This document shows positions 1-34,600 of a stretch of DNA of 49,228 nucleotides, piece by piece (the first letter of the stretch is position 1; each line of letters begins with the position of its first letter). Location of the stretch: assembly GCA_029858555.1 (NCBI GenBank), contig JAOUEU010000001.1:1-49228 (forward strand), in the 5' to 3' direction. This DNA comes from Candidatus Zixiibacteriota bacterium (lineage in GTDB: Bacteria > Zixibacteria > MSB-5A5 > GN15 > FEB-12). Both the position numbers and the translations under genes were made by a program. The notes under the pieces were generated by a model that was not told where the DNA came from, searched no databases, and saw only the letters and a program-made list of their open reading frames with translations.

Positions 1-1
1 C

Positions 2-842: not shown

Positions 843-1403
843 ATGCAAAAGCTTCCGTTATCCCGCGAAAAAGCTTACGAAATGGTCGTAGCAAGAATAG
901 GTGTGAACAACCTCCTGAAGCACATCCTGGCGGTGGAGGCCGGCATGCGCCAGGTTGCCGAACACCTGGGCGAAGATGTCGACTACTGGGGGCTGACAGG
1001 GTTGATTCATGATCTTGACTACAATGAGACCAAGGAAGACGAACCCCGGCACACTTATATTACCGAAGAGTGGCTGGCCGAATATGACTTGCCCGAGGAG
1101 ATGATTTACGCCATTCACGCCCACCCGGGGCACGTGCCTTGCCGATCCCGGCTGGATTGGGCCCTTTACGCAGTCGACCCGGCCACCGGGTTCCTGGTGG
1201 CCTGCGCCCTGATGCACCCGGACAAGAAACTTAGTGTCATCGATGGCGGCTTTATGCTGCGTCGATTCAAAGAAAAACGTTTCGCCGCCGGGGCCACCCG
1301 TGAGAATATAGCCGCCTGCTCCAATCTGGGGCTGGAGTTGGACAGGTTCCTGCTGCTTGTGCGCGACGGTATGATGACCATTTCGGATCAGCTCGGCCTG
1401 TAA
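843..1403 (+). CDS. HD/HDIG-domain metal-dependent phosphohydrolase
   Basis: Motifs LKHILAVEAGMR...GLIHDLDY...AIHAHPGH are the H...HD...H signature of the ~190-aa HDIG family. The ATG at 843 (MQKLPLSREKAYEMV) gives the typical family length, so the 771 start is probably an over-extension. Confidence 0.7.
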   Translation: MQKLPLSREKAYEMVVARIGVNNLLKHILAVEAGMRQVAEHLGEDVDYWGLTGLIHDLDYNETKEDEPRHTYITEEWLAEYDLPEEMIYAIHAHPGHVPCRSRLDWALYAVDPATGFLVACALMHPDKKLSVIDGGFMLRRFKEKRFAAGATRENIAACSNLGLELDRFLLLVRDGMMTISDQLGL

Positions 1404-1530
1404 CTACGGCCGGGTGTGCCTGCGCGCGATGTAGAATATGTCCGGGTGAAGCGATCTGCGCCGACATCCGGCGCCGGTGGAAACCCCAAGCCTGTAACGC
1501 GAGGCCCGGAAAGCCAGTTTGAACGTGTTG

Positions 1531-3946: not shown

Positions 3947-3951
3947 ACGTC

Positions 3952-4365
3952 ATGGTTCGGCAGTCCGCAGCCAGAGTAATCAGCCTTATAGATGAGGAGT
4001 GTCTTGCCGGACCTTCGTCCACAATGCGCGAGCTGGTCGCTAAATTCATCGTCATATCCGGCTATGCGGAGTTCAACCTCGTTCTTGGTCTGGTGTCGGA
4101 CTACCCGTACCATGCCGACCTGGTCGCACAATTCTGTCACGGTAAGGATATTGCCGCCGGCTGGACTCGCAAACCGGACCTTTACGAAATCCTTGAAAAG
4201 CACTGGAAGGTTAGGGGTGGCGGGTGGGCTGACATTGATTTGGAGTCCAGACACTGGAAGTTTTTCGGCCATTCTTCAGCTTATGGCGCTTGCGACAGCG
4301 GTGATCTCAGCTTTGTGGTGACGGAGCACCCGTTTTTCGCAAGTTACTCAATCACGATCGCGTAA
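3952..4365 (+). CDS. Small protein with Janus/Ocnus (PHPT1, 14-kDa phosphohistidine phosphatase)-like motifs
   Basis: The ATG at 3952 lies 5 nt after the PHP gene stop. Motifs YPYHADLV, RGGGW and, 11 residues later, KFFGHSSAYGA line up with human PHPT1 as I remember it (EYHADIY, LGGGR, HVYGYSMAYGPA) with the same GGG-to-GxSxAYG spacing. This is an alignment from memory, not a search. Confidence 0.45.
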   Translation: MVRQSAARVISLIDEECLAGPSSTMRELVAKFIVISGYAEFNLVLGLVSDYPYHADLVAQFCHGKDIAAGWTRKPDLYEILEKHWKVRGGGWADIDLESRHWKFFGHSSAYGACDSGDLSFVVTEHPFFASYSITIA

Positions 4366-4516
4366 CATGGACCTTGTGATTAAAGTATCTAACGCCATCA
4401 TGGGCCGCATCCGGCCTCGCGTCGTATCTGTTTGATTCATTGCGAGTTAGGGGGGTCCTCGCATTCGACGATCCCGTCGGTAGATCAAAAAAATACACTA
4501 ATCAGCGCAAAATTTC

Positions 4517-20314: not shown

Positions 20315-21163
20315 TCAATCCGGCCTGACGAGGGCAATAAACCTCTGAGCCAGTCGTTCGCCGACAGGACCGAGTTTGATGTCCCAGGTGCGGCGCGATG
20401 TCCTTATGCGCGACACGGGCGCGACAAGTTTCAGTGAACTGGAAATGAACACCTCGTCGGCCCTGACCAGATCATCGAGGCGCGCGTTCTTTTCGGTCAG
20501 TCGATATCCCAGCTTCTGCGCCTGACGGATCACAATTTTGCGCGTGATACCCTCGAGGCAACCGGCGCTGAGAGGAGGCGTATGTATATGGCCTTTATTC
20601 ACCCAGAAGACGTTGGCCGAGGTGACTTCAGCTATCTGGTCATTTTCATTCAAGAGCAAAGCATCGTCACAGCGCATCCGCCGGGCCTGGTTCAGGGCGG
20701 CGGCATGGATAGCATAGGAGAGAGTCTTGATTCGCCGGAAAAGCGAGTCCTGGTCGACCCTGAATTCCGAGACGTACAACCGAAAGGGCTTCCGGGGCAT
20801 TTGATGCGGAGAAGCACTGAGAATGACCTGCGGTTTACCCTTCACGCCCGTCCAGCGAGCTGATTCACCGCTGGTCATGGTTAGCCGGAGCTTGGTGATA
20901 CGGTCAGGGTGAGCCCTGACCGTCATAACCATCCATTTCGTCAACATGTCGGAACTGACCGGAATCTTAAGTCCTATCACTCTGGCGCCCCTCTGCAGGC
21001 GCTGGAGATGCTCCTTGAGGAAAATAATCCGATCGTCAATCGCCAAAAAGGTCTCGAAAAGCCCCTCCGCATACAGAAGGGAATTGTCGAACACCGATAT
21101 TCTGTCCTGGCCGCGCCGCACGAGGCGACCGTTTATTGATGTGACTGTCTTGACCGGCGGCAT
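20315..21163 (-). CDS. Class IV (fold-type IV) PLP aminotransferase (branched-chain/D-amino-acid aminotransferase or ADC-lyase-like)
   Basis: Motifs FDNSLLYAEGLFETF, IKTLSY (candidate PLP lysine), SANVFWV, CLEGITR and EVFISSS. The ATG at 21163 (MPPVKT...) gives the usual ~282 aa. The 365-aa ORF to 21412 would overlap the divergent gene. Confidence 0.75.
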   Translation of the reverse strand: MPPVKTVTSINGRLVRRGQDRISVFDNSLLYAEGLFETFLAIDDRIIFLKEHLQRLQRGARVIGLKIPVSSDMLTKWMVMTVRAHPDRITKLRLTMTSGESARWTGVKGKPQVILSASPHQMPRKPFRLYVSEFRVDQDSLFRRIKTLSYAIHAAALNQARRMRCDDALLLNENDQIAEVTSANVFWVNKGHIHTPPLSAGCLEGITRKIVIRQAQKLGYRLTEKNARLDDLVRADEVFISSSLKLVAPVSRIRTSRRTWDIKLGPVGERLAQRFIALVRPD

Positions 21164-21311
21164 CTCGCTTTCCCCGTTAACTCCCCCGCAGAGGATTTCC
21201 TTTGGTGATATTGTCCTGTCTAAGTGTGCCTCTGCAAAGTTATGGTGAATACTGGCAATGTCAAGTCTTGTGGGAATTGACTTTTTGCCGTCAGCGAGTT
21301 TATTGAACGGA

Positions 21312-22529
21312 ATGGATGCCGTTAAGCTTCTGGTCGTCTTCCTGGCCATCGTCCTCGCCTTGCGCAAGAGAGTGTCCGTCGGTCTGACATTACTGGCTGC
21401 GGGGCTGCTCACACTCCTCCTTTTTCAGACTGCGCTCGACAAGAGTCTGACCGGGTATCTGGACCTGGTTAGATCAACGCGTTTTGTCTCTCTGACGGCC
21501 GTGGTGGTTCTGATAACCGTGCTGGGCTCGCTGCTGAAAGAACTCAAGTACCTGGGCAGGCTGGCCCATTCCTGCAAAAGCCTGTATGGTGGGGACCGCA
21601 CCGCCGTGGCCGCTCTCCCGGGACTGGTGGGATTGATGCCCATGCCCGGCGGGTCGCTTCTGTCAGCCCCTCTGGTTGACAACGTGCTGGCGGCGGGAAA
21701 GTACACGCCCGAATTCAGGGTCGTCAGCAACTACTGGTTTCGCCACCATGTCGAGTTCTTCTGGCCCGTTTATCCCGGACTAATCCTGACGGAGGCCACT
21801 ACCGGCATGCCGATCGGCTCCGTCTCACTCATGCAACTGCCGCTGGCGGTGGCAATGTTTCTGATTGGTTTGATATTCTTTGTCAGACGTATCGACACCT
21901 CCCAGAACCAGCCCCGCAGTCTCCTCTCGGCTGCAGCAGGCATAGCCCGGACCATTTGGCCTATCGTACTGGCGATTGTTATCTACGGCATTCTCAAAGT
22001 CGACCTCTCCCTGGCGGTCTTGCTCTCGCTGGTGCTGCTCGTCATGGTCGCTCGTCCCCGGGGACGCATCCTGCTGCGGGCGCTGAAGGACGGCTTTTCG
22101 CCAAAACTGATTCTGCTGGTCCTTGGCGTTCTCTCTTTTCAAACAGCCCTTGAGCTATCGGGGGCTATAGCAGCGGTCACCCGGCTGACAACTTCGGCTG
22201 GGCTGCCGCCGGAGGCAGTCATTTTTGCTGTCTGCGCCACTATCGGTCTTTTGACCGGCATGGTTTCCGCCTATGTCGGCCTGGGATATTCGTTACTGGC
22301 GGGACTGTTGTACCAGCCGGAGGTCGCACCTGCGCACATTATGCTGGCATACCTTTCGGGCTACCTGGGCATGATGCTGTCGCCTTCACATCTGTGCCTG
22401 ATCCTGACCAACGAGTTCTTCAAGAGTGACCTGGCCCGTGTCTATCGACTGATGATACCGCCGTTTTTGTTGCTGGCGCTGATAGGATTTCTTATATATC
22501 TGTCGCCATGGCCTGAGCTGTTTCGCTAA
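21312..22529 (+). CDS. Polytopic membrane protein, DUF401-like permease
   Basis: About 12 hydrophobic segments. The N-terminus MDAVKLLVVFLAIVLALRKRVSVGLTLL resembles the DUF401/TIGR00529 family from memory. The family assignment is tentative. I prefer the ATG at 21312 to the start at 21258. Confidence 0.5.
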   Translation: MDAVKLLVVFLAIVLALRKRVSVGLTLLAAGLLTLLLFQTALDKSLTGYLDLVRSTRFVSLTAVVVLITVLGSLLKELKYLGRLAHSCKSLYGGDRTAVAALPGLVGLMPMPGGSLLSAPLVDNVLAAGKYTPEFRVVSNYWFRHHVEFFWPVYPGLILTEATTGMPIGSVSLMQLPLAVAMFLIGLIFFVRRIDTSQNQPRSLLSAAAGIARTIWPIVLAIVIYGILKVDLSLAVLLSLVLLVMVARPRGRILLRALKDGFSPKLILLVLGVLSFQTALELSGAIAAVTRLTTSAGLPPEAVIFAVCATIGLLTGMVSAYVGLGYSLLAGLLYQPEVAPAHIMLAYLSGYLGMMLSPSHLCLILTNEFFKSDLARVYRLMIPPFLLLALIGFLIYLSPWPELFR

Positions 22530-22703
22530 AGGCCCGCCGGTGGGTCCGATGAGTCGAAGTCTCAGGGCAAACGGTCGGCAAACGCAGAAGGCAACTGTGC
22601 TATAGAGGATCAGTGTGGGGAAAGGCCGGAGCCACAGCGCCCCAACGGGAACATAAGACATTGTCCGGCAAGGGCATAACGTTAATGGGGCGTGAAAAAT
22701 CCT

Positions 22704-22731
22704 GGAACTTTCCTGGGTCTTTTGGGTAATA
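22704..22731 (+). promoter_or_regulatory. Candidate ECF-type promoter (-35 GGAACTT) upstream of the ECF sigma gene
   Basis: A perfect GGAACTT (22704-22710) lies 49 nt upstream of the sigma ATG, and 16 nt later there is TAATA (22727-22731). The -10 is not the canonical ECF CGT/TCnAA type, so confidence is low. Confidence 0.25.
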
Positions 22732-22758
22732 GAGTTAGAACTTATTGTAAGGGTGTCT

Positions 22759-23361
22759 ATGGCAAAGCAGACTGAAAAGGACATCGATTACTCTCTGATA
22801 AGAGCCGTTCAGAACGGCGATATGGTGGCTTTCAACGAATTGGTCGACCGCTATAAGGGTCGCCTGATGAACGTGATTGGCCGTATGTTGTCTTCGACCG
22901 AAGAGGCGGAGGATATTGTACAGGAGACCTTTGTCCGCGTCTACCAGCACCGGCAATCGTTCAACTTCGAACATTGCTTTTCCACGTGGATTTATACCAT
23001 AGGTCTCAATCTGGCGCGGAACGAGTTGCGCAAAAGGAAGAAGTTCAAATATTACGAGATATCGGAGATGCAGGGAAACGAGAAGGAGTTCGCGGTCGAG
23101 ATGAAACTGCCTACTCGTTTACCCGAAGTACTGGACACGGCCATCAAGCAGCTTCCGGAAAAGTATCGCACGGCGTTTATGTTGCGGGACGTTCAGGAGA
23201 TGCCGTACGAGGAGGTTGCCAAGATTCTCAGTGTTCCGCTGGGTACGGTCAAATCACGGGTGAACCGTGCCCGGATGATGTTGCGAGACAAGTTACAGCC
23301 GAGAATGGAGGAATATAATGCGTTGTCGAAAAGCACGCTCCTACCTGTCAGCATACTGTAA
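22759..23361 (+). CDS. RNA polymerase ECF (sigma-70 family, group IV) sigma factor
   Basis: Region 2 is FNELVDRYKGRLMNVIGRML...AEDIVQETFVRVY...FSTWIYTIGLNLARNELRK. Region 4 is LPEKYRTAFMLRDVQEMPYEEVAKILSVPLGTVKSRVNRARMMLR. Confidence 0.9.
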   Translation: MAKQTEKDIDYSLIRAVQNGDMVAFNELVDRYKGRLMNVIGRMLSSTEEAEDIVQETFVRVYQHRQSFNFEHCFSTWIYTIGLNLARNELRKRKKFKYYEISEMQGNEKEFAVEMKLPTRLPEVLDTAIKQLPEKYRTAFMLRDVQEMPYEEVAKILSVPLGTVKSRVNRARMMLRDKLQPRMEEYNALSKSTLLPVSIL

Positions 23362-24007
23362 CGACGAGCTTACCGATCGTCGCAGGCTGGCGGTCAACGA
23401 GCATCTTTCGACCTGCTCATCTTGTCGAAAGGAGGAGGCGTTTCAGCGATCGCTTCGTCTGGCCGAGAAGCAGTTGCCCCGGCTGGCGGTATCGAACGAC
23501 TTCAACACCCGGCTTCTCAACCGGATTGCCGCCGAGCGCTTTGCCGAAACGAGAACGAAAGCCTATCTGCCTAAGCGGGCCCCGGTACTGGCCTGGAGCA
23601 AGGTGGTCCCCGCTGCGGCTATGACACTGGTTTTTCTGGTCATGGGAGTAATTACATTCCTGCCCGATAAGAACGGAGATCCGGGCTACATCGCGGCCGG
23701 TGATGCGGCTACTTCAGACAACCGGTACCTGACCGTTCAACCGGTGAACAATCCCAATATGACCATTAACCTTGACAAAGACTGGTCGCTTAATGCTCAG
23801 TTGGCCCGGGCGGAGAGAATTAACCGTATTTCCGACCGAATCACTCCGGCGGGGAGTTTCGGCCTGGCTTCGAATGTCACACAGGTTTCTTCCCGGAGTA
23901 TCCGGCCGCTGCCGTATGTCGACCATTATTTCCAGGTGCGGTCGGTGGTCCGAATTTATAAGTCGACCGAGACATCTTCCGCAGAGGAGGATTTGAAGAC
24001 GTACTAA
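23318..24007 (+). CDS. Anti-sigma factor, zf-HC2 (ZAS) type, single-pass membrane protein
   Basis: N-terminus MRCRKARSYLSAYCNDEL...NEHLSTCSSC carries the H-x3-C-x2-C motif. One TM segment (VVPAAAMTLVFLVMGVITFL). GGAGGAA SD 5 nt before the ATG. Its position immediately after the ECF sigma supports the call. Confidence 0.8.
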   Translation: MRCRKARSYLSAYCNDELTDRRRLAVNEHLSTCSSCRKEEAFQRSLRLAEKQLPRLAVSNDFNTRLLNRIAAERFAETRTKAYLPKRAPVLAWSKVVPAAAMTLVFLVMGVITFLPDKNGDPGYIAAGDAATSDNRYLTVQPVNNPNMTINLDKDWSLNAQLARAERINRISDRITPAGSFGLASNVTQVSSRSIRPLPYVDHYFQVRSVVRIYKSTETSSAEEDLKTY

Positions 24008-24008
24008 A

Positions 24009-25193
24009 ATGTTAAAGACTCGTCTAAAGGCCGCCGCCGGAATCCTGTCGCTTACCTTGGGGGCGGTCTTTTTTTCATCGGCCGCATATCCAAGCGACAG
24101 TTCCCTGTTCAACCTCGAATCGGGCTTGAACGATCTTGTCTATCGGCTCACTCGCTCGGTCGTGACCGTGGAATCCTCACACTCTCTGAGGATCGGCGTT
24201 GCGCAGGGGGCACAGGAGGAATCGGTCCACAACCTCATCTCCTCGGGGATAATCTATGATTCGACCGGTCACGTTCTGGTGGAAGCCTCCTCTCTGCTCG
24301 ACCACGACCGGATAATCGTAAAGTACGGCAACTACATATTGCCGGCGCGACTGGTGGGCATTGACTATCAGACAAATGTTGCCGTCCTGAAGGTCGATCG
24401 ACCTCTGGGGACCGCGGTTAGACTCGCCGATCAGTATGGCTGTGCCGGCCGCATGGTGATAGCGGTCGGTAACGCCTATGGGATGCAGGCCTCTCCGTCG
24501 ATCGGCTTCTGCGCCGGGTTCCGACCTGACGGCACCATCCAGTTCTCAGGACCGATTACGTCGGGGACCATCGGAGGCGGTTTGTTTGACCTGGCGGGCA
24601 ACCTCGTCGGGATTATCACCGGTGGGATCGGCGAGGGCAGAATGGCCGAGGTAGGGCTGGCGGTTCCGGCTTACAAAATACCGGCTATCGTCGAGCACAT
24701 CGTCAACCTGGGCGACCGGCAGGCCGGATACATCGGCATAACCACCGCCGATATTGAGATAGTGCCGGCGGTGGAAATCAGTTCCCCGTTTCGACTGACC
24801 GGCGGCCGCAACGCGAGCCGGACAGTGATCAACAAGGCTTTGCTCGTAACCGCTGTCGTGCCTTCGTCCCCCGCGGACCGGTCCGGGCTGCGCAAAGGCG
24901 ATTTGATTTTCGGCGTGGACGGTCGCGAGTTGGACTCTGCCCGGGACTTGATGAACCTGGTACAGCAAGGTAAACCCGGAACACGGCTGGAGTTGAGCCT
25001 GATTCGGCAAAATGCTCCTTTGTACGCGCAACTGGTTATCGGGCAGAAGCGGCTGACGCCGTCGACCCGCTTCTTGAGAACCCCGGGCGCGTCCGGGAGC
25101 ACTCTGGATATTCCGGACTCCCTTCAACGTGAGATCACGGTCTTGAAGCAGATGATTCAGAATTTGGAAACCCGCCTCGAGAGTCTCAGATAG
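24009..25193 (+). CDS. HtrA/DegP-like (S1C fold) + PDZ periplasmic protein with substituted catalytic triad (predicted non-proteolytic)
   Basis: Signal peptide present. The trypsin-fold blocks align with E. coli DegP: SSGIIYDSTGHVLVEASSL vs GSGVIID..GYVVTNNHVV, TNVAVLKV vs SDIALIQI, and GTIGGGLFDLAGNLVGI vs GNSGGALVNLNGELIGI. The PDZ block is SPADRSGLRKGDLIFGVDGRELDS. His, Asp and Ser of the triad align to Ser, Asn and Ile. Confidence 0.75.
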   Translation: MLKTRLKAAAGILSLTLGAVFFSSAAYPSDSSLFNLESGLNDLVYRLTRSVVTVESSHSLRIGVAQGAQEESVHNLISSGIIYDSTGHVLVEASSLLDHDRIIVKYGNYILPARLVGIDYQTNVAVLKVDRPLGTAVRLADQYGCAGRMVIAVGNAYGMQASPSIGFCAGFRPDGTIQFSGPITSGTIGGGLFDLAGNLVGIITGGIGEGRMAEVGLAVPAYKIPAIVEHIVNLGDRQAGYIGITTADIEIVPAVEISSPFRLTGGRNASRTVINKALLVTAVVPSSPADRSGLRKGDLIFGVDGRELDSARDLMNLVQQGKPGTRLELSLIRQNAPLYAQLVIGQKRLTPSTRFLRTPGASGSTLDIPDSLQREITVLKQMIQNLETRLESLR

Positions 25194-25239
25194 CAACTTT
25201 TAATTTCCCTTGGCCGCCGGTATTTCATAATTTTAGCGT

Positions 25240-25908
25240 ATGAATTTAAGTTTCGACGCGGACAAATTCCGTGAGGCGCTGCGCCGTTTTGGACCCGGGG
25301 AAAACAGCACCACGCGTTCCCTGTCTGTTTATTCGGCGGCCGTGGCCACAGCCGAGGAGGAGTTTCTTGATGCCGCGGTCGAACGCTGTCGCCGATATGC
25401 GGTCAACCGGGAGCAGTTTTACGAGATAATTCTGCAATCGTATTTGTTCCTGGGATTTCCCCGGATGCTGACCGCCGCCAAGCATCTGAACCGTGTTTTC
25501 CCCGGTAAGGATGCAGCCTCCTGCCTCAGGAAAATAAGTCCTGACGAGTCCGAGTGCTGGTTTGAGCATGGGATGCGACTGTGCAAAACCGTCTATGGCG
25601 GTAACTACGAACTGCTGAAAGAGAGAATGGAGTCGATCGCACCCGAGATCTTCCGATGGATGATAATCGAAGGTTACGGAAAAGTTCTGTCGCGTCCCCT
25701 GTTGAGCGCCGTCGATCGGGAATTGGCGGTCGTGGCCTGCCTGATGGTGGAGAACCGACCGAAACAGCTTCACGCCCATATGAGGGGCGCTCTCAACGTC
25801 GGGGCCTCGCTGGCCTTGCTGAGCGCTGTCGTGCATGATATCGGCGGCGCCGCCGGTGAAGGTTTCCGGGCGTCTCTGGCCATACTGGATGAGTTGAGTG
25901 ACGACTGA
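25240..25908 (+). CDS. Carboxymuconolactone decarboxylase (CMD/AhpD-like) family protein
   Basis: DRELAVVACLMVENRPKQLHAHMRGALNVGASLALLSAVVHDIGGAAG resembles the CMD-domain helix pair, and an N-terminal half has YEIILQSYLFLGFPRML. There is no CxxC. Its stop overlaps the tamB ATG by 1 nt. Confidence 0.5.
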   Translation: MNLSFDADKFREALRRFGPGENSTTRSLSVYSAAVATAEEEFLDAAVERCRRYAVNREQFYEIILQSYLFLGFPRMLTAAKHLNRVFPGKDAASCLRKISPDESECWFEHGMRLCKTVYGGNYELLKERMESIAPEIFRWMIIEGYGKVLSRPLLSAVDRELAVVACLMVENRPKQLHAHMRGALNVGASLALLSAVVHDIGGAAGEGFRASLAILDELSDD

Positions 25909-28900
25909 TGCGCCGCCTGAAGAAGATTGTCCTCATTTGCGCCGTTGGTCTTATCGTAATCATAGTGGGACTCTATCTTTATGTCTTTGTTCTGGGAGGC
26001 CTGGAGAGAATTGTCAACAATCAGGTGGCGTCTCTCGTTAGACCCGAGAACAAACTCCAGGTCTCGGTTGGCAATATCAAAGGCAATATCTTTTCCGGAA
26101 TAACCCTGGAGCGAGTGGAGGCCTTTTATGTGGATTCGACGCACCGCTATTGTCTGGCTCGTGTGCCACGACTGGTGGCAGCCTACTCGCTGTCCAACAT
26201 ATGGAATAAGAATTACATCCTGGACTATCTCTATATCGATTCGGCGCATGTCATGCTGGCCAGGGACAGCTCGGGAAACTGGCTGCTGCCCGACTTTTCC
26301 TCGGGCGACTCCTCCGAGCGGCCTCGCTTCATCCCGGCGCTCACCGTCGGCGAGTTGCGGCTGAACAGCGTCAGTCTCAGCCTGGTAGATCCCGCCGATA
26401 CGCTGGCCTTCGATAATGTCACCCTTTCAGCATCCATCAAGACAGAGGATAACACCTATGGCGCCAGTGTAGACCGCTTTGAGTTCACCTCGAACGAAGA
26501 ACATATCGTGCTCGATGCCGCCGAAGGACAGCTCACCTACTCGGACGGTAACGTGGTTTTCCGGGGAGTGACCGTTGTCTCGGCCGATACCCGCGTTAAA
26601 CTTAATGGGAGCGTCAGTCTTGGCCGCGAACCCCGCGGCGATATCGAGTTCGCGGTTGACAACCTGGACCTGGAAGAAATCACCGGTTACATCGGTCCCC
26701 GGCTCCGGGGCGTCCTCGATCTCAACGGCGCGGTCTCCTTTGCCGGCAGGGCTGTAACGGGCAAAGTCGATATGGGCGGCACTTTCATGCTGGCCGATTT
26801 CAGAAACCTGCACGCCGAGTTTCACTTCGCGGAGGCGCTTCTTCATTTGGACACCCTTTATGGATTCATTCTGCGTGATTGCGCTATCGACGGCAGCGGG
26901 GAGATCGATTTCTCCGGACCCACCGAAAATTACCGCCTGAATGCCGACATCAGGAATTTCAACCTGAAGAATCTGGTTCACAACAGCTTTGCCTCCAATC
27001 TCAGCGGTCGGCTTGCTCTGGAGGGGCAATCGTTCCGCACTCACAGCATGGTGCTGAACCTGCATACCGATTTCTTTGAATCCTCGTTCGATGAATACCC
27101 CATCCAGAAGGGCACCGGGGATCTCGTTATTACGGCCGATTCCATGTTTTTCCTAGATGGGTTCACGGTCGATTATTACGAGAATGTTTTCACGGCCTCA
27201 GGCCGGATCGACTATTCGGGCGGTATCGATTTGGACCTCGCCGTACAACTTGATAACCTCGATCGTTACCGGGGCAAGCTGTTCATTGATAAACCGGGCG
27301 GGCGCGGTCACGCCCACGGCCGTCTGAGCGGCTTAACGGCTGATCCCGACCTCAGCGGTTACTTTGAATCGGATTCGGTCTGGATATACGGTTTATACAG
27401 CGACAGTCTGTATGCTACATTCGACCTGGAACGCTTTCTGACAGGGCGGCGCGGGAATGTGGAAGTCTCCTGCTTCACCGGCACGGCATGGGCAATCCCT
27501 TATGACAGCGCCTACACCCGGCTTTCGGTTGACTCCAATCTCATAGGCATCGATACGGTTGCCTTTTGTGCCGAGTATTCCAAAGTATGTGGCCAGGGGA
27601 TCCTTGACGTGGAGGCATATCCCAAGGAACTGCGTCTGGATACTCTGACGGTCACCGTCTTTGACCAGGAGTTCGACAATTACGAAGAGGTTTATATCGA
27701 GATCGATTCGGCCGGTTTTGATTTCAAGCAGGTGACCATCGGGAACAACGGCGCCCGGCTGTCGCTGTTGGGGAAAATTGACTATGATGAATCCATGAAC
27801 GCCAGGGTATCGGTCGACCACGTGCCGGCGGCGCCGTGGATCGGCCTCTTCCGGCCGGAGTGGTCTGTCGACGGTGTTGTTTCCTGCGATGCGAGCCTGA
27901 GAGGTACGTTTCTGCAACCGGAGTTCAATCTGACGGGTTCGGTGGACTCCCTGACATACCGAAATCTGGTTCTGGGTCATGTGGGCACGCATGTCAACTA
28001 CTCCAATCGCCTGCTGACCATCGACAGTTTAAACGTCCGGTCGGACTCGGGTCAGTACCAGGCGAGCGGAGCCCTGTACGTGGACGTGGCTTTTACAACC
28101 GATTCGCTGGAGCGCCTGCCCGATCTCCCCATGAACATACGCATTACCGCCCGCGACCGACGCTTTGACCTGGTCAGTCTGGTGATGCCCTCGGTTGAAC
28201 AGCTCGACGGTGATTTCGTGGCCGATGTCACTCTTACCGGGACGCCGTTTGAGCCGCACCTGGAAGGGGGAGCCCACATCAAGAACGCCCGCCTGAAATA
28301 TTTTGACCTGGAGCAACTGCTCTACTCGGATTCCGCGGCGGTATCGATGGAAAACAACAGGATTGTCGTCGAGGAGATTGAAATACACACTGAGAATAGA
28401 AAGGCCTTTGCCTATGTCGAAGGGGAGATTGTCGTCAAGACCTTTGACAGTCTCTATTATGATCTGGACGTGAATCTGCCCAAGGAATTCCCTTTTGCCT
28501 ACGAACTTGATGACATCAAAGGGGTAGTGGAGGGGGAGGTCCATATCGAGGGCGATACGCCGCCTCTGGTGACCGGCGATCTGACGCTGGTCTCGGCGAG
28601 GTACGAAGTGAATTTCGCGGAGGCCGATGAAGGCTCGCCGGTTATGGCTGCCCTGTCGGGTGAGAACACCTGGGATCTTAATATTATAATCGATATACTG
28701 TCCAACTATTGGATAAAAAACGATGACATCGATGCCGAACTGTCTGGTCAGGTGAACCTGATTCGAGAGGATGGACAATACCGTTTTATCGGTGAGATGG
28801 AAATACTTCGCGGCACGGGCTTTCTGTTCGATAAAACCTTTCGGCTGGAGCCGGGCAGTCAGGTTATTTTCGAAGGCAACGAGACGCTCAATCCCCGGCT

Positions 28901-29441
28901 TGACATCAAGGGATACACCCGGGTGACAGTCGCGACACCTACTGCCGTCGACGAAGAGAAGACGTACGACCAGATCAACGCCTGCGTACATATCACCGGT
29001 ACCCTGGAGAACCCCGAGATCAATCCCTGCGAAGACTCCGATGTCCAGAACCGGGAAGAGTTGCTGCTGCTGATTGTCGCCAACCAGTACACGTCGGAAC
29101 GGGGCTCGGCCTCCACCAGCGTGGAGCGGCGCGTGACGGGGCTGATTTCCTCCCAGGTGTCGCAGATCGGGACGCGGCAATTGGGCCAGTTGGGTGTGGA
29201 AACCTTCGAGATTGACCCGTACGATGAGGGCGGAATCGATCTCGCCAAGACGCGCGTGACGCTGGGCTTCTATACGCCTCTGGCCAACCTGTACGTATAC
29301 GGGCGCTCCGCTCTGTCGGGACAGACGGGGCAGGAGGTCGGTTTCGAGTATCGCTTCGCGAAAAACGTAATCTTCCAGGGCCGGCGGGACGAAGAAGAAC
29401 TCTACCGCCTGCTGTTGAAACTGCACTGGGAATTCGAATGA
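25908..29441 (+). CDS. tamB: Translocation and assembly module protein TamB (AsmA-superfamily, DUF490 C-terminus)
   Basis: 1177 aa with an N-terminal membrane anchor (IVLICAVGLIVIIVGLYLYVFVL) and a long beta-rich periplasmic body. The C-terminal block ...VTLGFYTPLANLYVYGRSAL...EVGFEYRFAKNVIFQGRRDEE is typical of the TamB/DUF490 end. It is followed by an Omp85 gene. Confidence 0.8.
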   Translation: MRRLKKIVLICAVGLIVIIVGLYLYVFVLGGLERIVNNQVASLVRPENKLQVSVGNIKGNIFSGITLERVEAFYVDSTHRYCLARVPRLVAAYSLSNIWNKNYILDYLYIDSAHVMLARDSSGNWLLPDFSSGDSSERPRFIPALTVGELRLNSVSLSLVDPADTLAFDNVTLSASIKTEDNTYGASVDRFEFTSNEEHIVLDAAEGQLTYSDGNVVFRGVTVVSADTRVKLNGSVSLGREPRGDIEFAVDNLDLEEITGYIGPRLRGVLDLNGAVSFAGRAVTGKVDMGGTFMLADFRNLHAEFHFAEALLHLDTLYGFILRDCAIDGSGEIDFSGPTENYRLNADIRNFNLKNLVHNSFASNLSGRLALEGQSFRTHSMVLNLHTDFFESSFDEYPIQKGTGDLVITADSMFFLDGFTVDYYENVFTASGRIDYSGGIDLDLAVQLDNLDRYRGKLFIDKPGGRGHAHGRLSGLTADPDLSGYFESDSVWIYGLYSDSLYATFDLERFLTGRRGNVEVSCFTGTAWAIPYDSAYTRLSVDSNLIGIDTVAFCAEYSKVCGQGILDVEAYPKELRLDTLTVTVFDQEFDNYEEVYIEIDSAGFDFKQVTIGNNGARLSLLGKIDYDESMNARVSVDHVPAAPWIGLFRPEWSVDGVVSCDASLRGTFLQPEFNLTGSVDSLTYRNLVLGHVGTHVNYSNRLLTIDSLNVRSDSGQYQASGALYVDVAFTTDSLERLPDLPMNIRITARDRRFDLVSLVMPSVEQLDGDFVADVTLTGTPFEPHLEGGAHIKNARLKYFDLEQLLYSDSAAVSMENNRIVVEEIEIHTENRKAFAYVEGEIVVKTFDSLYYDLDVNLPKEFPFAYELDDIKGVVEGEVHIEGDTPPLVTGDLTLVSARYEVNFAEADEGSPVMAALSGENTWDLNIIIDILSNYWIKNDDIDAELSGQVNLIREDGQYRFIGEMEILRGTGFLFDKTFRLEPGSQVIFEGNETLNPRLDIKGYTRVTVATPTAVDEEKTYDQINACVHITGTLENPEINPCEDSDVQNREELLLLIVANQYTSERGSASTSVERRVTGLISSQVSQIGTRQLGQLGVETFEIDPYDEGGIDLAKTRVTLGFYTPLANLYVYGRSALSGQTGQEVGFEYRFAKNVIFQGRRDEEELYRLLLKLHWEFE

Positions 29442-31360
29442 GTTGCCGCGTTGTCATTGCCGCTGTCTTTCTGATGGGCCTGGGCCTGGCGGCGGCCGCT
29501 TCGGCGACCGACAGAGTGCAACTCCGCTGGATACGCAATAAGCCGGTTATCGACTCCATCGTGGTGGAGGGCAATGAATATTTTTCTGCCGGTGAGATCA
29601 AGAAGCGGATGTACTCCAGGAAACGAAATGTCTGGGGCTGGCTCAAAGGTGACCGGCGAACGCGCATTCAGCGCGAAACACTCAGGCGTGATACCCTTGA
29701 AATTAAGTACATGTACTTGACTAAAGGGTTTTTGGGTATTCAGATTCAGGAGAGTTTTGAGATAACCGGCATCGATTCGGCCGCCTTGATCAGGGTGCAG
29801 GTCGATGAAGGTCGACAGTTTCGGTACGGCCGCCGGCAGGTTACAGGTTCCTTTGAAAGGCGGTTCGGTTACAGTCTGAACAAGATTGCGCTGAATCTCA
29901 AGGAGGGCGAGCCCGTTAATCTCTTCGAGGTCCGCGAGGCCGTCTTCGACATGAAAACGATCCTCGCCAACGGCGGTTTCCCGTACGCCAGGGTAACGCA
30001 CCTGGTCGACACATCCGGGGCCGACGGGGCGGCGATTACTTTTGAAATCGACGCCGATTCGCTGGTACATTTTGGTGATATCGCCGTGAAGGGCACTGAG
30101 AATTTTCCGGAATACACCGCGCGCCGGGAACTCAGAATACGCAAGGGGGCGGTTTACCGACGAGACGACATTCTTCGCAGTCAGCGGCGCCTTTTCGAAT
30201 CAGGTTACTTCAGTACCTTTCAGATAAATCAGGCCGATACGCTGACCGACCGCCTGCAGCCGGATTTTGTCCTCCGCGTGCGCGAGCGCAGACCGCTTTA
30301 TGTCTCCTTTGAAACGGGTGCCGCCCAGTCTCAGGAACGTGATCTGGAGTGGAGTTTCTCTCCGGCGTTCGGTAAACGCAATCTGTGGGGCTCACGACGC
30401 CTGGATCTTCTGGCTGACTACTCATTCAGTGTTGGTCGTGATACCCGGCTTTTGACCCACCGGTATCAGGTACGATTCACGGAACCCTGGTTTCTGGGGA
30501 TTCGCATGCCGCTGACACTAAGTGGCGAGTTAAACCCCCGGCTTAAGGATCCGACCCAGAACTTTGATAAACAGTCGTGGGTCGTTGCCGCGGCCACGAC
30601 CAAACGGTTCGGAATCTACATAAAAGCCAATCTCGGTTTCGAATATCAGTCGGTCGAGATAAGCGGTGTGCCGGAAGACCAGATCCCGCTGATCAAAAGC
30701 CAGGAAGGTATATCGGCCCGTCGCAAACTCTACTTCAATATCCGGCGCGACAGCCGCGAAGACCTCTTCATTCCCCGGTCGGGCTCGGTGACCGATTTTT
30801 CCGCCGAGTTTTTCGGCGGTTTCCTGGGCGGCGACGAAAACTTCTTCCGGTTTCAGACCGGCTGGTCCCGCTACCAGATATTCTGGCCCGGCTGGATTGC
30901 GGCGAGCCGTGTCCGGGTCGGCTGGACCGAGGAGTTCGGGGCCTCGGAATTTGTCCCCTCGGACGAGCTGCTTTATATTGGCGGGGCCAACAGTATCCGT
31001 GGTTTTAAGGAAAACACTCTCGGGCCACAACTGCCCGACGGCAGCCCCAAGGGGGCCCGCCTGACCTTGATCTTCAACCAGGAATTCCGCTGGAAGACTC
31101 TCCAGATATTCTCGGTCATTCCTGTTCTGGACGACCTGTTCAGGGCCCTGCCGCTCTGGCAGTCGCTTTTCTTCGACGCCGGTAACGGCTTCGACAGCCG
31201 GGCTGATTTCTCTCTGGAGGACCTGGCCTTCAGCTACGGCACGGGTGTTCAAATCGCCTCCCCGGCCGGGCCGATCCGTCTGGACTACGCCCGGCGTATT
31301 AAGACCGATAAAATCGACTTTGCTTCCCGCTGGCATTTTACTATATTATATGCCTTTTAA
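29438..31360 (+). CDS. tamA: Omp85-family outer-membrane protein (TamA/BamA family; POTRA repeats + surface antigen D15 barrel)
   Basis: Signal peptide ...LAAAASA. POTRA-like start IDSIVVEGNEYFSAGEIKK. Barrel motifs LYIGGANSIRGFKEN and YGTGVQIASPAGPIRLDYA. C-terminal ...WHFTILYAF. At 640 aa its size is TamA-like (about 3 POTRA) rather than BamA-like. The ATGA overlaps the tamB stop. The symbol is assigned by context. Confidence 0.8.
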   Translation: MSCRVVIAAVFLMGLGLAAAASATDRVQLRWIRNKPVIDSIVVEGNEYFSAGEIKKRMYSRKRNVWGWLKGDRRTRIQRETLRRDTLEIKYMYLTKGFLGIQIQESFEITGIDSAALIRVQVDEGRQFRYGRRQVTGSFERRFGYSLNKIALNLKEGEPVNLFEVREAVFDMKTILANGGFPYARVTHLVDTSGADGAAITFEIDADSLVHFGDIAVKGTENFPEYTARRELRIRKGAVYRRDDILRSQRRLFESGYFSTFQINQADTLTDRLQPDFVLRVRERRPLYVSFETGAAQSQERDLEWSFSPAFGKRNLWGSRRLDLLADYSFSVGRDTRLLTHRYQVRFTEPWFLGIRMPLTLSGELNPRLKDPTQNFDKQSWVVAAATTKRFGIYIKANLGFEYQSVEISGVPEDQIPLIKSQEGISARRKLYFNIRRDSREDLFIPRSGSVTDFSAEFFGGFLGGDENFFRFQTGWSRYQIFWPGWIAASRVRVGWTEEFGASEFVPSDELLYIGGANSIRGFKENTLGPQLPDGSPKGARLTLIFNQEFRWKTLQIFSVIPVLDDLFRALPLWQSLFFDAGNGFDSRADFSLEDLAFSYGTGVQIASPAGPIRLDYARRIKTDKIDFASRWHFTILYAF

Positions 31361-31445
31361 AGACTGTTCGGCGTGAACAATCGCCGCGCGGTCGTGTTTG
31401 GTATGTAAGACTGGCTGACTGATGAGCCGGCAGGAGACGCCACGA

Positions 31446-32609
31446 ATGGAAAGTGTTTATCTCGATTATAACGCCACCACGCCGATCGACCCGGAAGTGG
31501 TCCAGGCGATGTTACCGTACTTGACCGAAGGTTTTGGCAATGCCAGTTCCGTGCATCAGTACGGTCGGGACGCCAAGGTGGCGCTCGAGAATTCGAGAGA
31601 ACAAATCGCCTCAATAATAAACTGTGAACCGTCCGAACTCTACTTCACGTCGGGCGGAACCGAATCCGACAATATCGCCGTCATCGGAACCGCTTACCAG
31701 CTCAGGAAGAAGAAAAAGCACCTTATTGTCGGCGCCGCCGAACACCATGCCGTTTTGCACCCAGCCGAGCACCTGCACAAGAAGGAAGGCTTCGGCCTGG
31801 ACCTTCTGCCGGTTGACGCTGAAGGTTTTGCCTCCCCCCGGCAGTTGGCCGAGTTGCTGAGAGATGATTCGGCCTTGGTCAGTGTCATGCACGCGAACAA
31901 CGAAACCGGTACGATCGAGGATATCAAGACCCTGGCCGATATCGCGCACCAAAACGGCGTCCTTTTTCACACCGATGCCGTGCAATCCACCGGCAAAATC
32001 AACGTCGATGTAAAAGACCTGGGAGTTGACCTGCTTTCGCTGACGGGTCACAAGATATACGGGCCCAAGGGAGTGGGGGCGCTCGTCGTTCGCCAGGGCG
32101 TCAAGATTGCACCCCTGTTTTTCGGTGGTTCCCATGAGCGGAAACGCCGCCCCGGCACCGAAAACGTCGCCGGTGTGGTCGGTCTGGCCAAAACGCTCGA
32201 AATCGCCGAGAAGCGCCGCGAGGCGGATTTCACAAAGCTCTCCGAGCTGGCCGATTACTTTATCGATTCCGTCAGCCGGCGTATCCCCGATGTTTACTTC
32301 AACGGCTCCCGGCAGCGGCGCATCCCGCAGACGGTGAATCTGTCATTCGAGGGCATCGAAGGCGAGTCTATCGTCCTGTCCCTGGATATGAAAAACATTG
32401 CCGTTTCATCCGGCTCGGCCTGTACTTCCGGTGTGACTGAGCCCTCGCACGTTCTGATGGCGATGGGCAAGCCGGCCGTGGTCAGCCAGGGTGCGGTGCG
32501 TTTTTCGATGGGGCGCTCTACTACGAAAGAAAAGCTGGACTACGTCTTGGCCGAACTGCCGCCGATTATCGAGCGCCTGCGGGACATGTCCCCGGTGTAT
32601 GACCGCTAA
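31446..32609 (+). CDS. Cysteine desulfurase, NifS/IscS family (class V PLP aminotransferase fold)
   Basis: MESVYLDYNATTP, FTSGGTESDN, LTGHKIYGPKGVGAL (PLP lysine), RPGTENV and SSGSACTSG (active-site Cys). I prefer the ATG at 31446 to the one at 31422. Confidence 0.9.
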   Translation: MESVYLDYNATTPIDPEVVQAMLPYLTEGFGNASSVHQYGRDAKVALENSREQIASIINCEPSELYFTSGGTESDNIAVIGTAYQLRKKKKHLIVGAAEHHAVLHPAEHLHKKEGFGLDLLPVDAEGFASPRQLAELLRDDSALVSVMHANNETGTIEDIKTLADIAHQNGVLFHTDAVQSTGKINVDVKDLGVDLLSLTGHKIYGPKGVGALVVRQGVKIAPLFFGGSHERKRRPGTENVAGVVGLAKTLEIAEKRREADFTKLSELADYFIDSVSRRIPDVYFNGSRQRRIPQTVNLSFEGIEGESIVLSLDMKNIAVSSGSACTSGVTEPSHVLMAMGKPAVVSQGAVRFSMGRSTTKEKLDYVLAELPPIIERLRDMSPVYDR

Positions 32610-32626
32610 ACGATATATCGTATCTC

Positions 32627-33712
32627 ATGCCTGAAAAAGTCCTCGTTGCCATGTCAGGCGGCGTCGATTCCTCGGTCGCCGCTTTGCTTCTGAAAGAGCA
32701 GGGTTACGATGTCGTCGGAGCCCACATGAAGCTCTGGGACTACGTCGACGTCGGCGGTGACATCTACAAAGACGGCCGCTGCTGCACTATCGATTCCATC
32801 ACCGACTGCCGGATGGTCTGCGATGCCATCGGCGCGCCGTTCTATGTCCTCAACATGTCCGCCAGGTTCTCCGAAAAAGTGATCGAGAATTTCGTCAACG
32901 AGTACAAGTCCGGGCGCACGCCCAACCCCTGCGTCATCTGCAACTCCGATATCAAGTGGGTCGAGTTTCTGCGCAAGGCCGAAGAAATCGGCTGCGACTA
33001 TATCGCCACCGGCCATTATGCTACCATCGAAAAAATGCTCGACGGCAGGTACGGTATCCGCAAGGGGGTCGACGGCACCCGCGACCAAGCCTATGTGCTG
33101 TGGGGTATCTCCCAGAGAGCGCTTTCCAAAACGCTTATGCCGCTGGGGAAGAGGCGCAAAGCCGACGTGCGCGAGATTGCCCGCAGGTATAACCTTCGCA
33201 CCGCCGAAAAAACCGAGTCGCGCGAGATATGCTTTGTGGCTGATGACGACTACCGCCGGTTTCTGCGCGAATACGAAGAAAAGCGCGGGCGCAGTTTCGA
33301 GCCGGGCGATATTGTCCACACCGACGGCACCGTGCTGGGACGGCACCACGGCACCGCCTTTTATACTGTCGGCCAGCGCAAGGGCATGGGCATTGCCCAC
33401 CCGACGCCGCTGTATGTTCAGAAAATCGACACTGAAAAGAATGTCGTCATAGTTGGCGACAACGACACCCTGTTCAGGAACGAGCTGAAGGCTGAATCCG
33501 TCAACTGGGTCGCTATGGCTCCGGCGGAAAAACTGTTTGAGGCCGAGGTCAAGATCCGATATTTACACCAGCCCGCCCCGGCAACCGTTACTCCCTTGAC
33601 CGACGGCACAGTCCACATTATATTCAGGGACAAACAGCGGGCGATAACCCCCGGCCAGTCGGTGGTCTTTTTCGACGGCGACCTTCTACTTGGCGGCGGC
33701 GTAATAGCCTGA
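32627..33712 (+). CDS. mnmA: tRNA-specific 2-thiouridylase (tRNA 2-thiouridine(34) synthase)
   Basis: PP-loop VAMSGGVDSSVAA, then TPNPCVICNSDIKW, ATGHYA, DQAYVLW and FYTVGQRKG. Confidence 0.93.
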   Translation: MPEKVLVAMSGGVDSSVAALLLKEQGYDVVGAHMKLWDYVDVGGDIYKDGRCCTIDSITDCRMVCDAIGAPFYVLNMSARFSEKVIENFVNEYKSGRTPNPCVICNSDIKWVEFLRKAEEIGCDYIATGHYATIEKMLDGRYGIRKGVDGTRDQAYVLWGISQRALSKTLMPLGKRRKADVREIARRYNLRTAEKTESREICFVADDDYRRFLREYEEKRGRSFEPGDIVHTDGTVLGRHHGTAFYTVGQRKGMGIAHPTPLYVQKIDTEKNVVIVGDNDTLFRNELKAESVNWVAMAPAEKLFEAEVKIRYLHQPAPATVTPLTDGTVHIIFRDKQRAITPGQSVVFFDGDLLLGGGVIA

Positions 33713-33799
33713 GAGATTAGAGCGCTCATCTCTCATCACCTTCTTCATCCTGGCTCTGCGGCGCAAGTACAAGCGCAAGTCTTTCTGAAGATATAGCAT

Positions 33800-33829
33800 T
33801 TGACAAACCCGCGCGGCTTGCCGTATTTA
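33800..33829 (+). promoter_or_regulatory. Candidate sigma70 promoter (TTGACA-18 nt-TATTTA) for the MBL-fold hydrolase gene
   Basis: A perfect -35 TTGACA at 33800-33805 and TATTTA at 33824-33829, about 45 nt upstream of the ATG at 33873, which has an AAGGAGGAG SD. Confidence 0.35.
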
Positions 33830-33872
33830 TCTCCAGAGGCTGTCCAACAAGCAATAATCAAGGAGGAGAGAT

Positions 33873-34550
33873 ATGCCGGAAGTCAGATTCCTGGGCCATT
33901 CGTGTGTTACGATAACCGAAGGCGAGCACAAGCTCATAATCGACCCCTTTATAAGCGATAATCCCAAGGCCCCCGTCAAGGCCGACGAAATCGACGTCAA
34001 CTATATCCTTCTGACCCACGGTCACGGCGACCACGTGGGTGATGCCATCGCTATCGCCATACGCACCGGCGCGACGGTTATAGCCAATTTCGAGCTGGCC
34101 AGCCTGGTCGCGAGTGAGGGAGTCGTTATGCACCCGATGCATATTGGCGGCGGACACGACTTCCCGTTCGGGCGGGTGAAACTGACTATCGCCCACCACG
34201 GCGGCGGCTACGGCCCCGATGCTTCCCGCTACACCGGCCCGCCGGTAGGGTTCCTGGTAACAATCGGCGGCAAAGTGATTTATCACCCTGGCGACACCGG
34301 CCTTTTCCTGGACATGAAACTGATCGGCGAGATGAACAAGATTGACCTGGCCTTTCTCCCTATCGGCGACAACTTCACCATGGGCCTCGACGACGCCGTC
34401 AAGGCGGTGGAATTCCTGCAGCCGAAAAAGGTTATCCCGTTTCACTATGATACGTGGGATTTGATCGCCGAAAACCCGGCTAAATTCGCCGACCGCGTCC
34501 AGGGCGCCGAAGTCATTATCCTGAAACCGGGGGAGAGCCTTAAGCTTTAG
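33873..34550 (+). CDS. Metal-dependent hydrolase, metallo-beta-lactamase fold (UPF0173 family)
   Basis: 225 aa. ILLTHGHGDHVGD is the HxHxDH motif, and the N-terminus is RFLGHSCVTI. Length and layout match the UPF0173 family. Confidence 0.8.
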   Translation: MPEVRFLGHSCVTITEGEHKLIIDPFISDNPKAPVKADEIDVNYILLTHGHGDHVGDAIAIAIRTGATVIANFELASLVASEGVVMHPMHIGGGHDFPFGRVKLTIAHHGGGYGPDASRYTGPPVGFLVTIGGKVIYHPGDTGLFLDMKLIGEMNKIDLAFLPIGDNFTMGLDDAVKAVEFLQPKKVIPFHYDTWDLIAENPAKFADRVQGAEVIILKPGESLKL

Positions 34551-34573
34551 CGACCGGGCCGAAAGGCGTTCGG

Positions 34574-34600
34574 AAAGGCGGGTTGCGCCCCGCCTTTTTT
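34574..34600 (+). terminator. Rho-independent terminator
   Basis: AAA-GGCGGG (34577-34582), loop TTGCGC, CCCGCC (34589-34594), then TTTTTT (34595-34600). It starts 24 nt after the stop at 34550. Confidence 0.7.

Follow-up and report, generated by a model that had tools for sequence, protein, structure and literature searches.

Gene arrangement at the locus and its conservation

The window analyzed here is the whole of a 49,228-nucleotide (nt) stretch of DNA from a Candidatus Zixiibacteriota bacterium (GenBank assembly GCA_029858555.1, contig JAOUEU010000001.1, positions 1 to 49,228 of the forward strand), which is contig C131 of a 3.4-Mb metagenome-assembled genome (MAG; genome label G000). 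Genes were called as open reading frames (ORFs), and then assigned by Pfam domains. The subject of this study is a run of six same-strand genes encoding an extracytoplasmic function (ECF) sigma factor, a zf-HC2 anti-sigma factor, an HtrA/DegS-like protein that lacks the catalytic residues (dHtrA), a protein of the carboxymuconolactone decarboxylase (CMD) fold, and a TamB/AsmA-like protein followed by an Omp85 protein, with the last three genes forming a TAM-type unit (TAM, translocation and assembly module). The genes and the two predicted promoters are:

22704-22731, + strand: predicted ECF-type promoter (-35 element GGAACTT at 22704-22710, 17-nt spacer after GGAAC, -10 element GTAAT at 22726-22730)
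22759-23361, + strand: ECF sigma factor, 200 amino acids (aa) (Pfam Sigma70_r2 and r4_2)
23318-24007, + strand: zf-HC2 anti-sigma factor, 229 aa (Pfam zf-HC2)
24009-25193, + strand: dead HtrA/DegS-like protein dHtrA, 394 aa (Pfam Trypsin_2 and PDZ)
25204-25239, + strand: predicted seam promoter (-10 element CATAAT, degenerate -35 element TTTCCC)
25240-25908, + strand: CMD (AhpD/carboxymuconolactone decarboxylase fold) protein, 222 aa (Pfam CMD)
25908-29441, + strand: TamB/AsmA-like protein, 1177 aa (Pfam TamB)
29438-31360, + strand: Omp85/POTRA protein, 640 aa (Pfam Omp85 and POTRA)

According to these coordinates, the sigma and anti-sigma genes overlap by 44 nt, the gap between the anti-sigma gene and dHtrA is 1 nt and that between dHtrA and CMD is 46 nt, CMD and tamB share 1 nt, and tamB overlaps the Omp85 gene by 4 nt (ATGA). 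The sigma gene starts with the ATG at 22759, preceded by an AAGGG Shine-Dalgarno (SD) sequence at 22749-22753, and a GTG at 22753 lies in the same frame. An earlier note, made from the DNA letters alone, had listed the six genes, all of these gaps and overlaps, and the GGAACTT box, and each of them was confirmed from the ORF coordinates and the sequence.

Conservation of the arrangement was evaluated at two levels: in 20 relatives from three families of the window's order (21 loci with the window), and in 151 genomes of the phylum, from which representatives of 16 families were compared for gene arrangement. As far as the contigs reach, the sigma, anti-sigma, dHtrA, TamB, Omp85 and IscS genes stand in the same order in 20/20 order-level relatives, and MnmA is usually next after IscS. 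The CMD gene is present in 19 of the 20, being absent from G022. The sigma/anti-sigma overlap measures 44 nt in 18/20 of these relatives and 47 nt in the other two, and the dHtrA-CMD gap is 38-58 nt at 18 of the 19 order-level loci that carry CMD, with a 944-nt insert in G018. Altogether, departures in spacing among the 20 relatives amount to one locus without CMD and two with larger gaps. The six-gene arrangement is not a product of chance.

At the level of the phylum, the sigma factor is single-copy in 147 of the 151 genomes, and the TamB-Omp85 pair follows the sigma module, as a full or partial block, in representatives of 11/16 families, in agreement with the synteny that the earlier note had proposed to look for in related lineages. 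The block order is also kept, fully or partly, in one distant Zixibacteria MAG. The linkage persists down to ∼26% TamB identity and 55% sigma identity. The families (labelled f) differ as follows:

Full six-gene set: families f1, f2, f3 and f18, and part of f4
Block without dHtrA: most of f4
Block without CMD: families f7, f10 and f15
Family f5: in one genome sigma/anti-sigma and then CMD-TamB-Omp85; in the other, no TAM genes within 12 kb downstream
Block with extra inserted DNA: families f6 and f8
Sigma factor, a gene in the anti-sigma position (some matched by similarity) and an HtrA-like gene only: families f9, f11, f13, f14 and f16

The two modules (sigma/anti-sigma/HtrA and CMD/TamB/Omp85) therefore lie apart in 5/16 families. 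Five genomes in which the TAM unit stands away from the sigma module were tested, and the orthologous TamB-Omp85 pair was present in all five, located either ∼17 kb downstream on the same strand (G102 and G131) or elsewhere in the genome (G105, G092 and G127). Outside the phylum, KSB1 and "Cytophagia" MAGs carry the sigma factor, anti-sigma factor and HtrA-like gene, and a Latescibacterota MAG carries the sigma factor with an HtrA-like gene downstream, but in the sequence at hand no TAM genes were found beside any of these sigma loci. Accordingly, among the loci examined the TAM link is seen only in Zixibacteria, and the pairing of sigma factor and HtrA is much wider spread than the TAM link.

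Properties of the encoded proteins

The sigma factor matches Pfam Sigma70_r2 (64 bits) and Sigma70_r4_2 (67 bits), with Sigma70_ECF also matched, and its score of 103.5 bits against the NCBIfam sigma70-ECF superfamily (cut-off 42.9) places it among the ECF (group 4) sigma factors. The best NCBIfam equivalogs, SigW (142.7 bits, cut-off 209) and RpoE (133.3 bits, cut-off 236), were not reached. Sequence identity of 68-86% across the order-level loci exceeds the conservation of IscS. The anti-sigma factor matches zf-HC2 with 39 bits (Pfam) and belongs to class I (zf-HC2/ZAS); its H-x3-C-x2-C motif (HLSTCSSC) is nearly invariant in 21 sequences, and its last residue is Y in 19/21 of them and F in the remaining two. 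Its AlphaFold model contains helices at 3-82 with high confidence and a transmembrane helix at 93-114; the block-mean pLDDT (the per-residue confidence of the model) is ≥90 over residues 1-50 in the domain of helices 1-4, and residues 124-229 are mostly below 50. Confidence for the anti-sigma domain together with the membrane helix is moderate to high. The periplasmic part is thus predicted to be mostly disordered, with conserved linear motifs. Across the overlap at 23318-23361, both the 14-residue tail of the sigma factor (NALSK.TLLP...) and the N-terminus of the anti-sigma factor (MRCRK.RS.LSAY) are conserved; judged by this conservation, two reading frames are constrained simultaneously.

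The third protein is a periplasmic HtrA/DegS-like protein that aligns to the DegQ structure over residues 77-367 (E 4.5e-27). Besides a signal peptide it comprises a protease fold and a single PDZ domain, and it has a coiled-coil helix at the C-terminus. The chymotrypsin fold and PDZ domain of the HtrA/S1C family are present and the catalytic triad is absent: in the DegQ alignment, His is replaced by Ser, Asp by Asn and Ser by Ile. All three positions are occupied by non-catalytic residues in 21/21 order-level orthologues, so that the HtrA homologue is dead, as the earlier note had it, in the window and likewise in all 20 other orthologues. These orthologues all keep the G-x-x-G (G240, G243) of the PDZ binding loop, and their C-terminal coiled coil is conserved. 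From its sequence, dHtrA is best described as a putative pseudoprotease, and not as an enzyme member of the HtrA/DegP/DegS family.

When the triad was compared in the HtrA-like genes downstream of the sigma orthologues (loci L131-L150 and L042-L051), it was found intact at this position in f8 and one distant MAG; His was lost in f7 and f15, His and Asp were lost in f9, f10, f11, f13, f14 and f16, and all three residues were lost in f1-f3, f18, a KSB1 MAG and one "Cytophagia" MAG. The HtrA-like protein of a second "Cytophagia" MAG keeps the Ser of the triad. The catalytic triad appears to decay stepwise at one orthologous position across the phylum. Live HtrA paralogues are encoded elsewhere in the window genome, on C142 and C305, together with an M50 site-2 protease on C26, and regulated proteolysis is therefore still possible. 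No RseB/MucB homologue is present at the locus, where no dedicated RseB search was made. This genome has a second ECF sigma gene on C305 (367-5765, minus strand), with genes for three secreted or membrane proteins and for a live HtrA (His, Asp and Ser present) behind it, and this cluster may form an envelope-stress module of its own.

The first protein of the second module contains the CMD domain (PF02627, 48.6 bits, gathering score 23) and does not reach the PcaC equivalog (41 bits, cut-off 156). It has no evident signal peptide, and is predicted to be a cytoplasmic CMD-fold protein encoded by the first gene of the TAM unit. More than 1200 CMD homologues were found, and among the 120 matches listed every organism name was of Zixibacteria type or uninformative. 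The second protein carries a TamB domain (138 bits) over residues 836-1174 and a hydrophobic N-terminus with AsmA/DUF748 matches; the C-terminal DUF490/TamB domain and the N-terminal membrane anchor make it a bridge protein of the TAM type, anchored in the inner membrane, and the NCBIfam TamB equivalog is not reached (56 bits, cut-off 825).

The Omp85 partner has a type I signal peptide, POTRA repeats, a barrel domain of the 16-strand type and a C-terminal ...LYAF, and it has no lipobox. The earlier note had labelled it TamA; by NCBIfam score it lies closer to BamA (269.8 bits, cut-off 297) than to TamA (68 bits, cut-off 625) or TamL (59 bits, cut-off 400). Its match to the BamA model begins only at model position 150 of 741, and N-terminal POTRA domains are accordingly missing from the Omp85 partner. 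By family score, the protein is more BamA-like than TamA-like. A canonical bamA-skp-lpxD cluster lies elsewhere in the genome, on C321, and a second, divergent pair of TamB (1351 aa) and Omp85 (596 aa) lies on C66. This second pair closes a same-strand block (G000:C66 4726-16433) whose first genes encode a LolD-like ABC ATPase and an FtsX-like permease, and a GGAAC-N17-GTA match stands 196 nt upstream of the ABC gene.

Promoter motifs and the predicted regulon

The ECF-type promoter of the window lies ∼30 nt upstream of the sigma ATG. A GGAAC-N17(±1)-GTA motif was found 45-90 nt upstream of the sigma start in 20/21 order-level loci and in 19/20 family representatives (39/41 in all). The GGAAC-N16-18-GTA pattern alone is not rare, with 5 matches in the window and 3.0 expected, and what gives weight to the box is not the rarity of the pattern but its being kept at this position ahead of the sigma gene in 39/41 loci. 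A pattern scan located only one ECF box inside the window cluster, that at 22704. The GGAAC box is most likely a conserved, autoregulated ECF-type promoter. In f1 loci (L021-L041), a TAAC-N3-TTGT-like motif occurs ∼40-50 nt upstream of the GGAAC box, and is weaker in the window (22640-22690); it may serve the sigma operon as a second promoter or as a regulator site.

Other members of the regulon were sought by a plain GGAAC-N16-18-GTA scan of the genome, followed by phylogenetic footprinting of orthologous upstream regions. A position weight matrix built from the sigma-gene promoters alone was discarded, as it was over-fitted to spacer positions and recovered just the sigma promoter. The scan of G000 gave 17 candidate intergenic sites, compared with 171 matches genome-wide. 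ECF boxes were found upstream of a SurA-like parvulin peptidyl-prolyl isomerase lipoprotein (G000:C335 26462-28003), where the box is kept in 25/27 loci, and upstream of a secreted tandem-PDZ protein (G000:C335 24284-25249), where it is kept in 9/9 loci. The tandem-PDZ protein has 321 aa and a C-terminal coiled coil resembling that of dHtrA, and its gene adjoins the SurA-like gene (G000:C335 24211-28003). Both genes are likely members of the regulon of the window sigma factor, and their conserved boxes give a predicted regulon devoted to periplasmic protein quality control, which supports an envelope-stress role. The genome search for the GGAACTT-type motif that the earlier note had proposed was thus productive, and the envelope-related regulon it expected agrees with the predicted tandem-PDZ and SurA-like targets. 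Other intergenic matches in G000 (upstream of a LolD-like ABC gene on C66, a TetR gene on C308, a possible M23/coiled-coil gene on C289 and nuoB in the window) may be due to chance.

The seam between dHtrA and CMD was compared in 26 loci and scored against TTGACA/TATAAT. The best sigma-70-type match ends 5-10 nt before the CMD start in 18/26 loci, typically as TTGCCA-N18-TACATT or TATAAT (general form TTGCCA-N18-TAnnnT), and no SD-like sequence precedes CMD in 24/26 loci, the window included. In the window, the -10 element CATAAT is at 25226-25231, 8 nt before the CMD ATG. The geometry of the seam is unchanged where dHtrA is missing and the gap is ∼300 nt, and in two loci of the dHtrA-less kind a consensus promoter scan independently flagged the seam at 11/12 matches, the flagged site ending 7 nt ahead of the start codon. 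The RNA of the seam lacks structure (z +1.9). A -10-like hexamer 5-10 nt from the CMD start, found at most loci in the window seam and its orthologues (L021-L041, L132-L134 and L138), suggests together with the missing SD a leaderless CMD mRNA, and the motif suggests that the seam is a sigma-70-type promoter yielding a leaderless CMD-TamB-Omp85 transcript. For a gene that heads an envelope-machine unit, a leaderless start is unusual.

The intergenic gaps of the cluster contain no terminator-like site apart from a weak 5-bp hairpin that follows the Omp85 gene, and none was found between the anti-sigma gene and CMD in f4 genomes. The weak hairpin overlaps a stable one at 31362-31393, directly 3' of the Omp85 stop codon (minimum free energy -29 kcal/mol, z -3.5 over 31340-31425), which is followed by a U-poor tract. 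There is no conserved terminator after the Omp85 gene; relatives do not have a consistently structured gap, and the hairpin is limited to the window lineage. It could be a weak terminator or an attenuator ahead of iscS.

The CMD-TamB-Omp85 unit remains intact when it is unlinked from the sigma gene, with CMD directly upstream of TamB in G127, G102 and G131. A strong TTGACC-type promoter stands ahead of TamB in G105 and G092, and a terminator hairpin lies immediately upstream of CMD in G102 and G131. No ECF box, the relaxed G[GA]AAC form included, was found upstream of three fully unlinked TAM units. In L154 (G102, f14) and L155 (G131, f9), positions 1-4500 hold three same-strand genes (∼440-470, 567 and 417 aa) directly upstream of CMD-TamB-Omp85, and this three-gene run ends in a clear terminator hairpin just before the CMD start codon.

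The features flanking the cluster in the window are listed below; a search of 21000-34600 against Rfam found no known RNA family.

21258-22529, + strand: DUF401 protein (ORF and Pfam)
31362-31393, + strand: stable hairpin after the Omp85 stop codon (RNA folding)
31422-32609, + strand: class-V aminotransferase, IscS/NifS-like (ORF and Pfam)
32627-33712, + strand: MnmA (ORF and Pfam)
33873-34550, + strand: metallo-beta-lactamase-fold protein

The DUF401 neighbor upstream and the IscS-MnmA neighbors downstream recur in many families, and conserved order is therefore by itself no proof of shared function.

Organization of transcription, known systems and significance

The explanation that we consider reasonably probable is that the cluster consists of two tandem co-directional units, adjacent through most of Zixibacteria with no terminator between them, and coupled by read-through. 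It takes as its starting point the observed gene content, spacing and conservation, the conserved promoter motifs, and the loss of the triad. The first unit would be an autoregulated envelope-stress operon, in which the GGAAC-N17-GTA promoter drives the sigma factor, the anti-sigma factor and dHtrA, with dHtrA acting as a binding sensor or gatekeeper rather than as a protease. The second would start in the 46-nt gap, where a sigma-70-type promoter would drive CMD, TamB and the BamA-like Omp85 protein, the conserved TAM-type machine of the phylum. Since there is no terminator between the units, stress read-through into the TAM unit is expected, and on release of the sigma factor the TAM unit would be transcribed from the ECF promoter on top of its basal expression. 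This sigma factor would also drive the tandem-PDZ protein and the SurA-like chaperone elsewhere in the genome.

Several points weigh against this explanation. The firing of the two promoters, the read-through and the leaderless start are predictions from sequence, as is the sensing mechanism. At the window seam the -35 element is poor (TTTCCC at 25204-25209, 3/6), though the -10 element is good. The genome encodes several ECF paralogues, which could in principle share the GGAAC -35 element. Unlinked TAM units have no ECF box, and TAM is therefore not an obligatory member of the regulon. Finally, since DUF401 and IscS-MnmA recur too, the conserved adjacency may be historical.

This last point leads to an alternative that we regard as unlikely but worth weighing, namely that the gene order is inherited without regulatory meaning, ECF transcription stops before CMD (for example, by a Rho-dependent mechanism), and TAM is purely housekeeping. 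Consistent with this idea, many of the same families also keep DUF401 and IscS-MnmA, for which no tie to the envelope is apparent; the linkage is broken in 5/16 families, with no ECF box upstream in three where the unit has moved elsewhere; and loss of a middle gene (dHtrA in f4, CMD in f7, f10 and f15) leaves its neighbors adjacent without selection. However, in most f1 loci the two units stay about 44-47 nt apart and no hairpin lies between them, and the linkage outlasts a divergence (∼26% TamB and 55% sigma identity) at which non-operonic order usually decays. The remainder of the predicted regulon is also concerned with periplasmic quality control, which makes a functional tie to Omp85/TamB plausible.

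Quite improbable is the view closest to the earlier note, one self-contained sense-and-repair operon of six genes transcribed from the ECF promoter only, with the seam motif having another role, for example as a regulator site or translation signal: the genes do overlap or nearly abut, the cluster has no terminator anywhere and only one ECF box, and the window seam has a weak -35 element, but in most loci the seam follows the sigma-70 layout (TTGCCA-N18-TAnnnT with 5-10 nt to the ATG and without an SD), the layout persists without dHtrA when the gap is ∼300 nt, CMD-TamB-Omp85 stands free in other families, where it has promoters of the sigma-70 type and lacks an ECF box, and this type of TamB-Omp85 occurs in all five further genomes tested, so that basal expression is probably needed. 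Of the single transcription unit that had been proposed, the part that stands is that no terminator separates the genes; the conserved sigma-70-like promoter at the seam is an internal promoter of the kind that the earlier note had named beforehand as refuting it. The self-contained sense-and-repair operon goes beyond the sequence evidence, given two separable modules and a TAM unit that has no ECF box when unlinked.

Within the two-unit explanation, a more specific and tentative proposal, which we think doubtful as a whole, is that the sigma factor, anti-sigma factor and dHtrA form a non-proteolytic sensor of outer-membrane assembly. The PDZ domain would hold the Tyr/Phe tail of the anti-sigma factor until it is displaced by the C-termini of unassembled outer-membrane proteins, with read-through to the main TamB-Omp85 machine.

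The trio of sigma factor, anti-sigma factor and HtrA varies the theme known from AlgU-MucA-MucD and RpoE-RseA-DegS without being a new kind of system; what is new is its link to the TAM genes. Like the AlgU-MucA-MucB-MucD genes of Pseudomonas and the rpoE-rseA-mucD genes of Xanthomonas and Stenotrophomonas, the window locus has an ECF sigma factor, a single-pass anti-sigma factor and an HtrA-family PDZ gene on one strand, a most likely autoregulated promoter with a GGAAC -35 element, and a predicted regulon that includes periplasmic folding factors. The nearest sigma matches outside FCB-type phyla are from Oxalobacteraceae (33-35% identity), with a live HtrA 0.5-1 kb downstream. Unlike in the AlgU/rpoE-mucD operons, HtrA here is without its catalytic triad, the anti-sigma factor is of the zinc-finger (ZAS) type, and the operon runs straight into a TamB-Omp85 unit. 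With the sigma-E system of E. coli (RpoE, RseA, RseB, DegS, RseP), the locus shares the principle of an anti-sigma factor set in the membrane, with a periplasmic part that is mostly unstructured here according to the model, as well as a DegS-like PDZ protein, a site-2 protease in the genome, and a SurA-type chaperone in the regulon, predicted in the present case. In contrast, E. coli DegS is active and encoded away from rpoE, whereas the DegS-like protein here is inactive and encoded in the operon, and E. coli sigma-E reaches the genes for outer-membrane protein assembly by separate promoters, whereas any effect on TamB-Omp85 here would be via read-through only.

In B. subtilis, the SigW-type promoter is TGAAAC-N16-CGTA. 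The boxes here, G(G/A)AAC-N16/17-(C/G)GTA(A/T), resemble that type, and SigW is the best NCBIfam model, but the score is below the equivalog cut-off, the host belongs to the diderms of the FCB group, and its anti-sigma factor does not resemble RsiW.

As in the TAM of Proteobacteria and the TamL/TamB of Bacteroidota, TamB here has a DUF490/TamB C-terminal domain and is translationally coupled to the downstream Omp85 gene (4-nt ATGA overlap). Flavobacterium has a second pair, TamB2-TamL2 (PMC4494059, PMC12045153), and the window genome likewise has a second TamB-Omp85 pair. Unlike TamA and TamL, the Omp85 protein here scores far better against BamA and is without a lipobox, and unlike in TAM/TamL systems, a CMD-fold gene leads the unit and the unit sits behind an ECF sigma operon. 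The TamL paper does not speak of a sigma/anti-sigma linkage, and the main text of the ECF re-classification paper makes no mention of HtrA, PDZ, CMD or TamB. In the literature searched, nothing relevant turned up on an ECF-TamB operon or on regulation of TAM by sigma-E, nor any paper on an ECF operon next to TamB-Omp85.

The arrangement itself is genuine and old, and it can be tested. A central role in the lipid and protein homeostasis of the outer membrane is now recognized for TamB/AsmA-like bridges with their Omp85 partners, and almost nothing is known of the regulation of TamB/Omp85 outside Proteobacteria. The locus offers an arrangement conserved phylum-wide in which transcription from a stress promoter could run on into a TAM unit with a predicted basal promoter of its own, and a compact predicted regulon for an uncultured phylum, composed of the sigma operon, a tandem-PDZ protein and a SurA-like chaperone. 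The series from live to dead HtrA at one orthologous position provides a way to ask how a site-1 protease becomes a binding protein. If the sensor proposal were true, it would give the first case in nature of direct coupling between an envelope-stress sigma factor and a TAM-type transporter, beside a small chaperone regulon.

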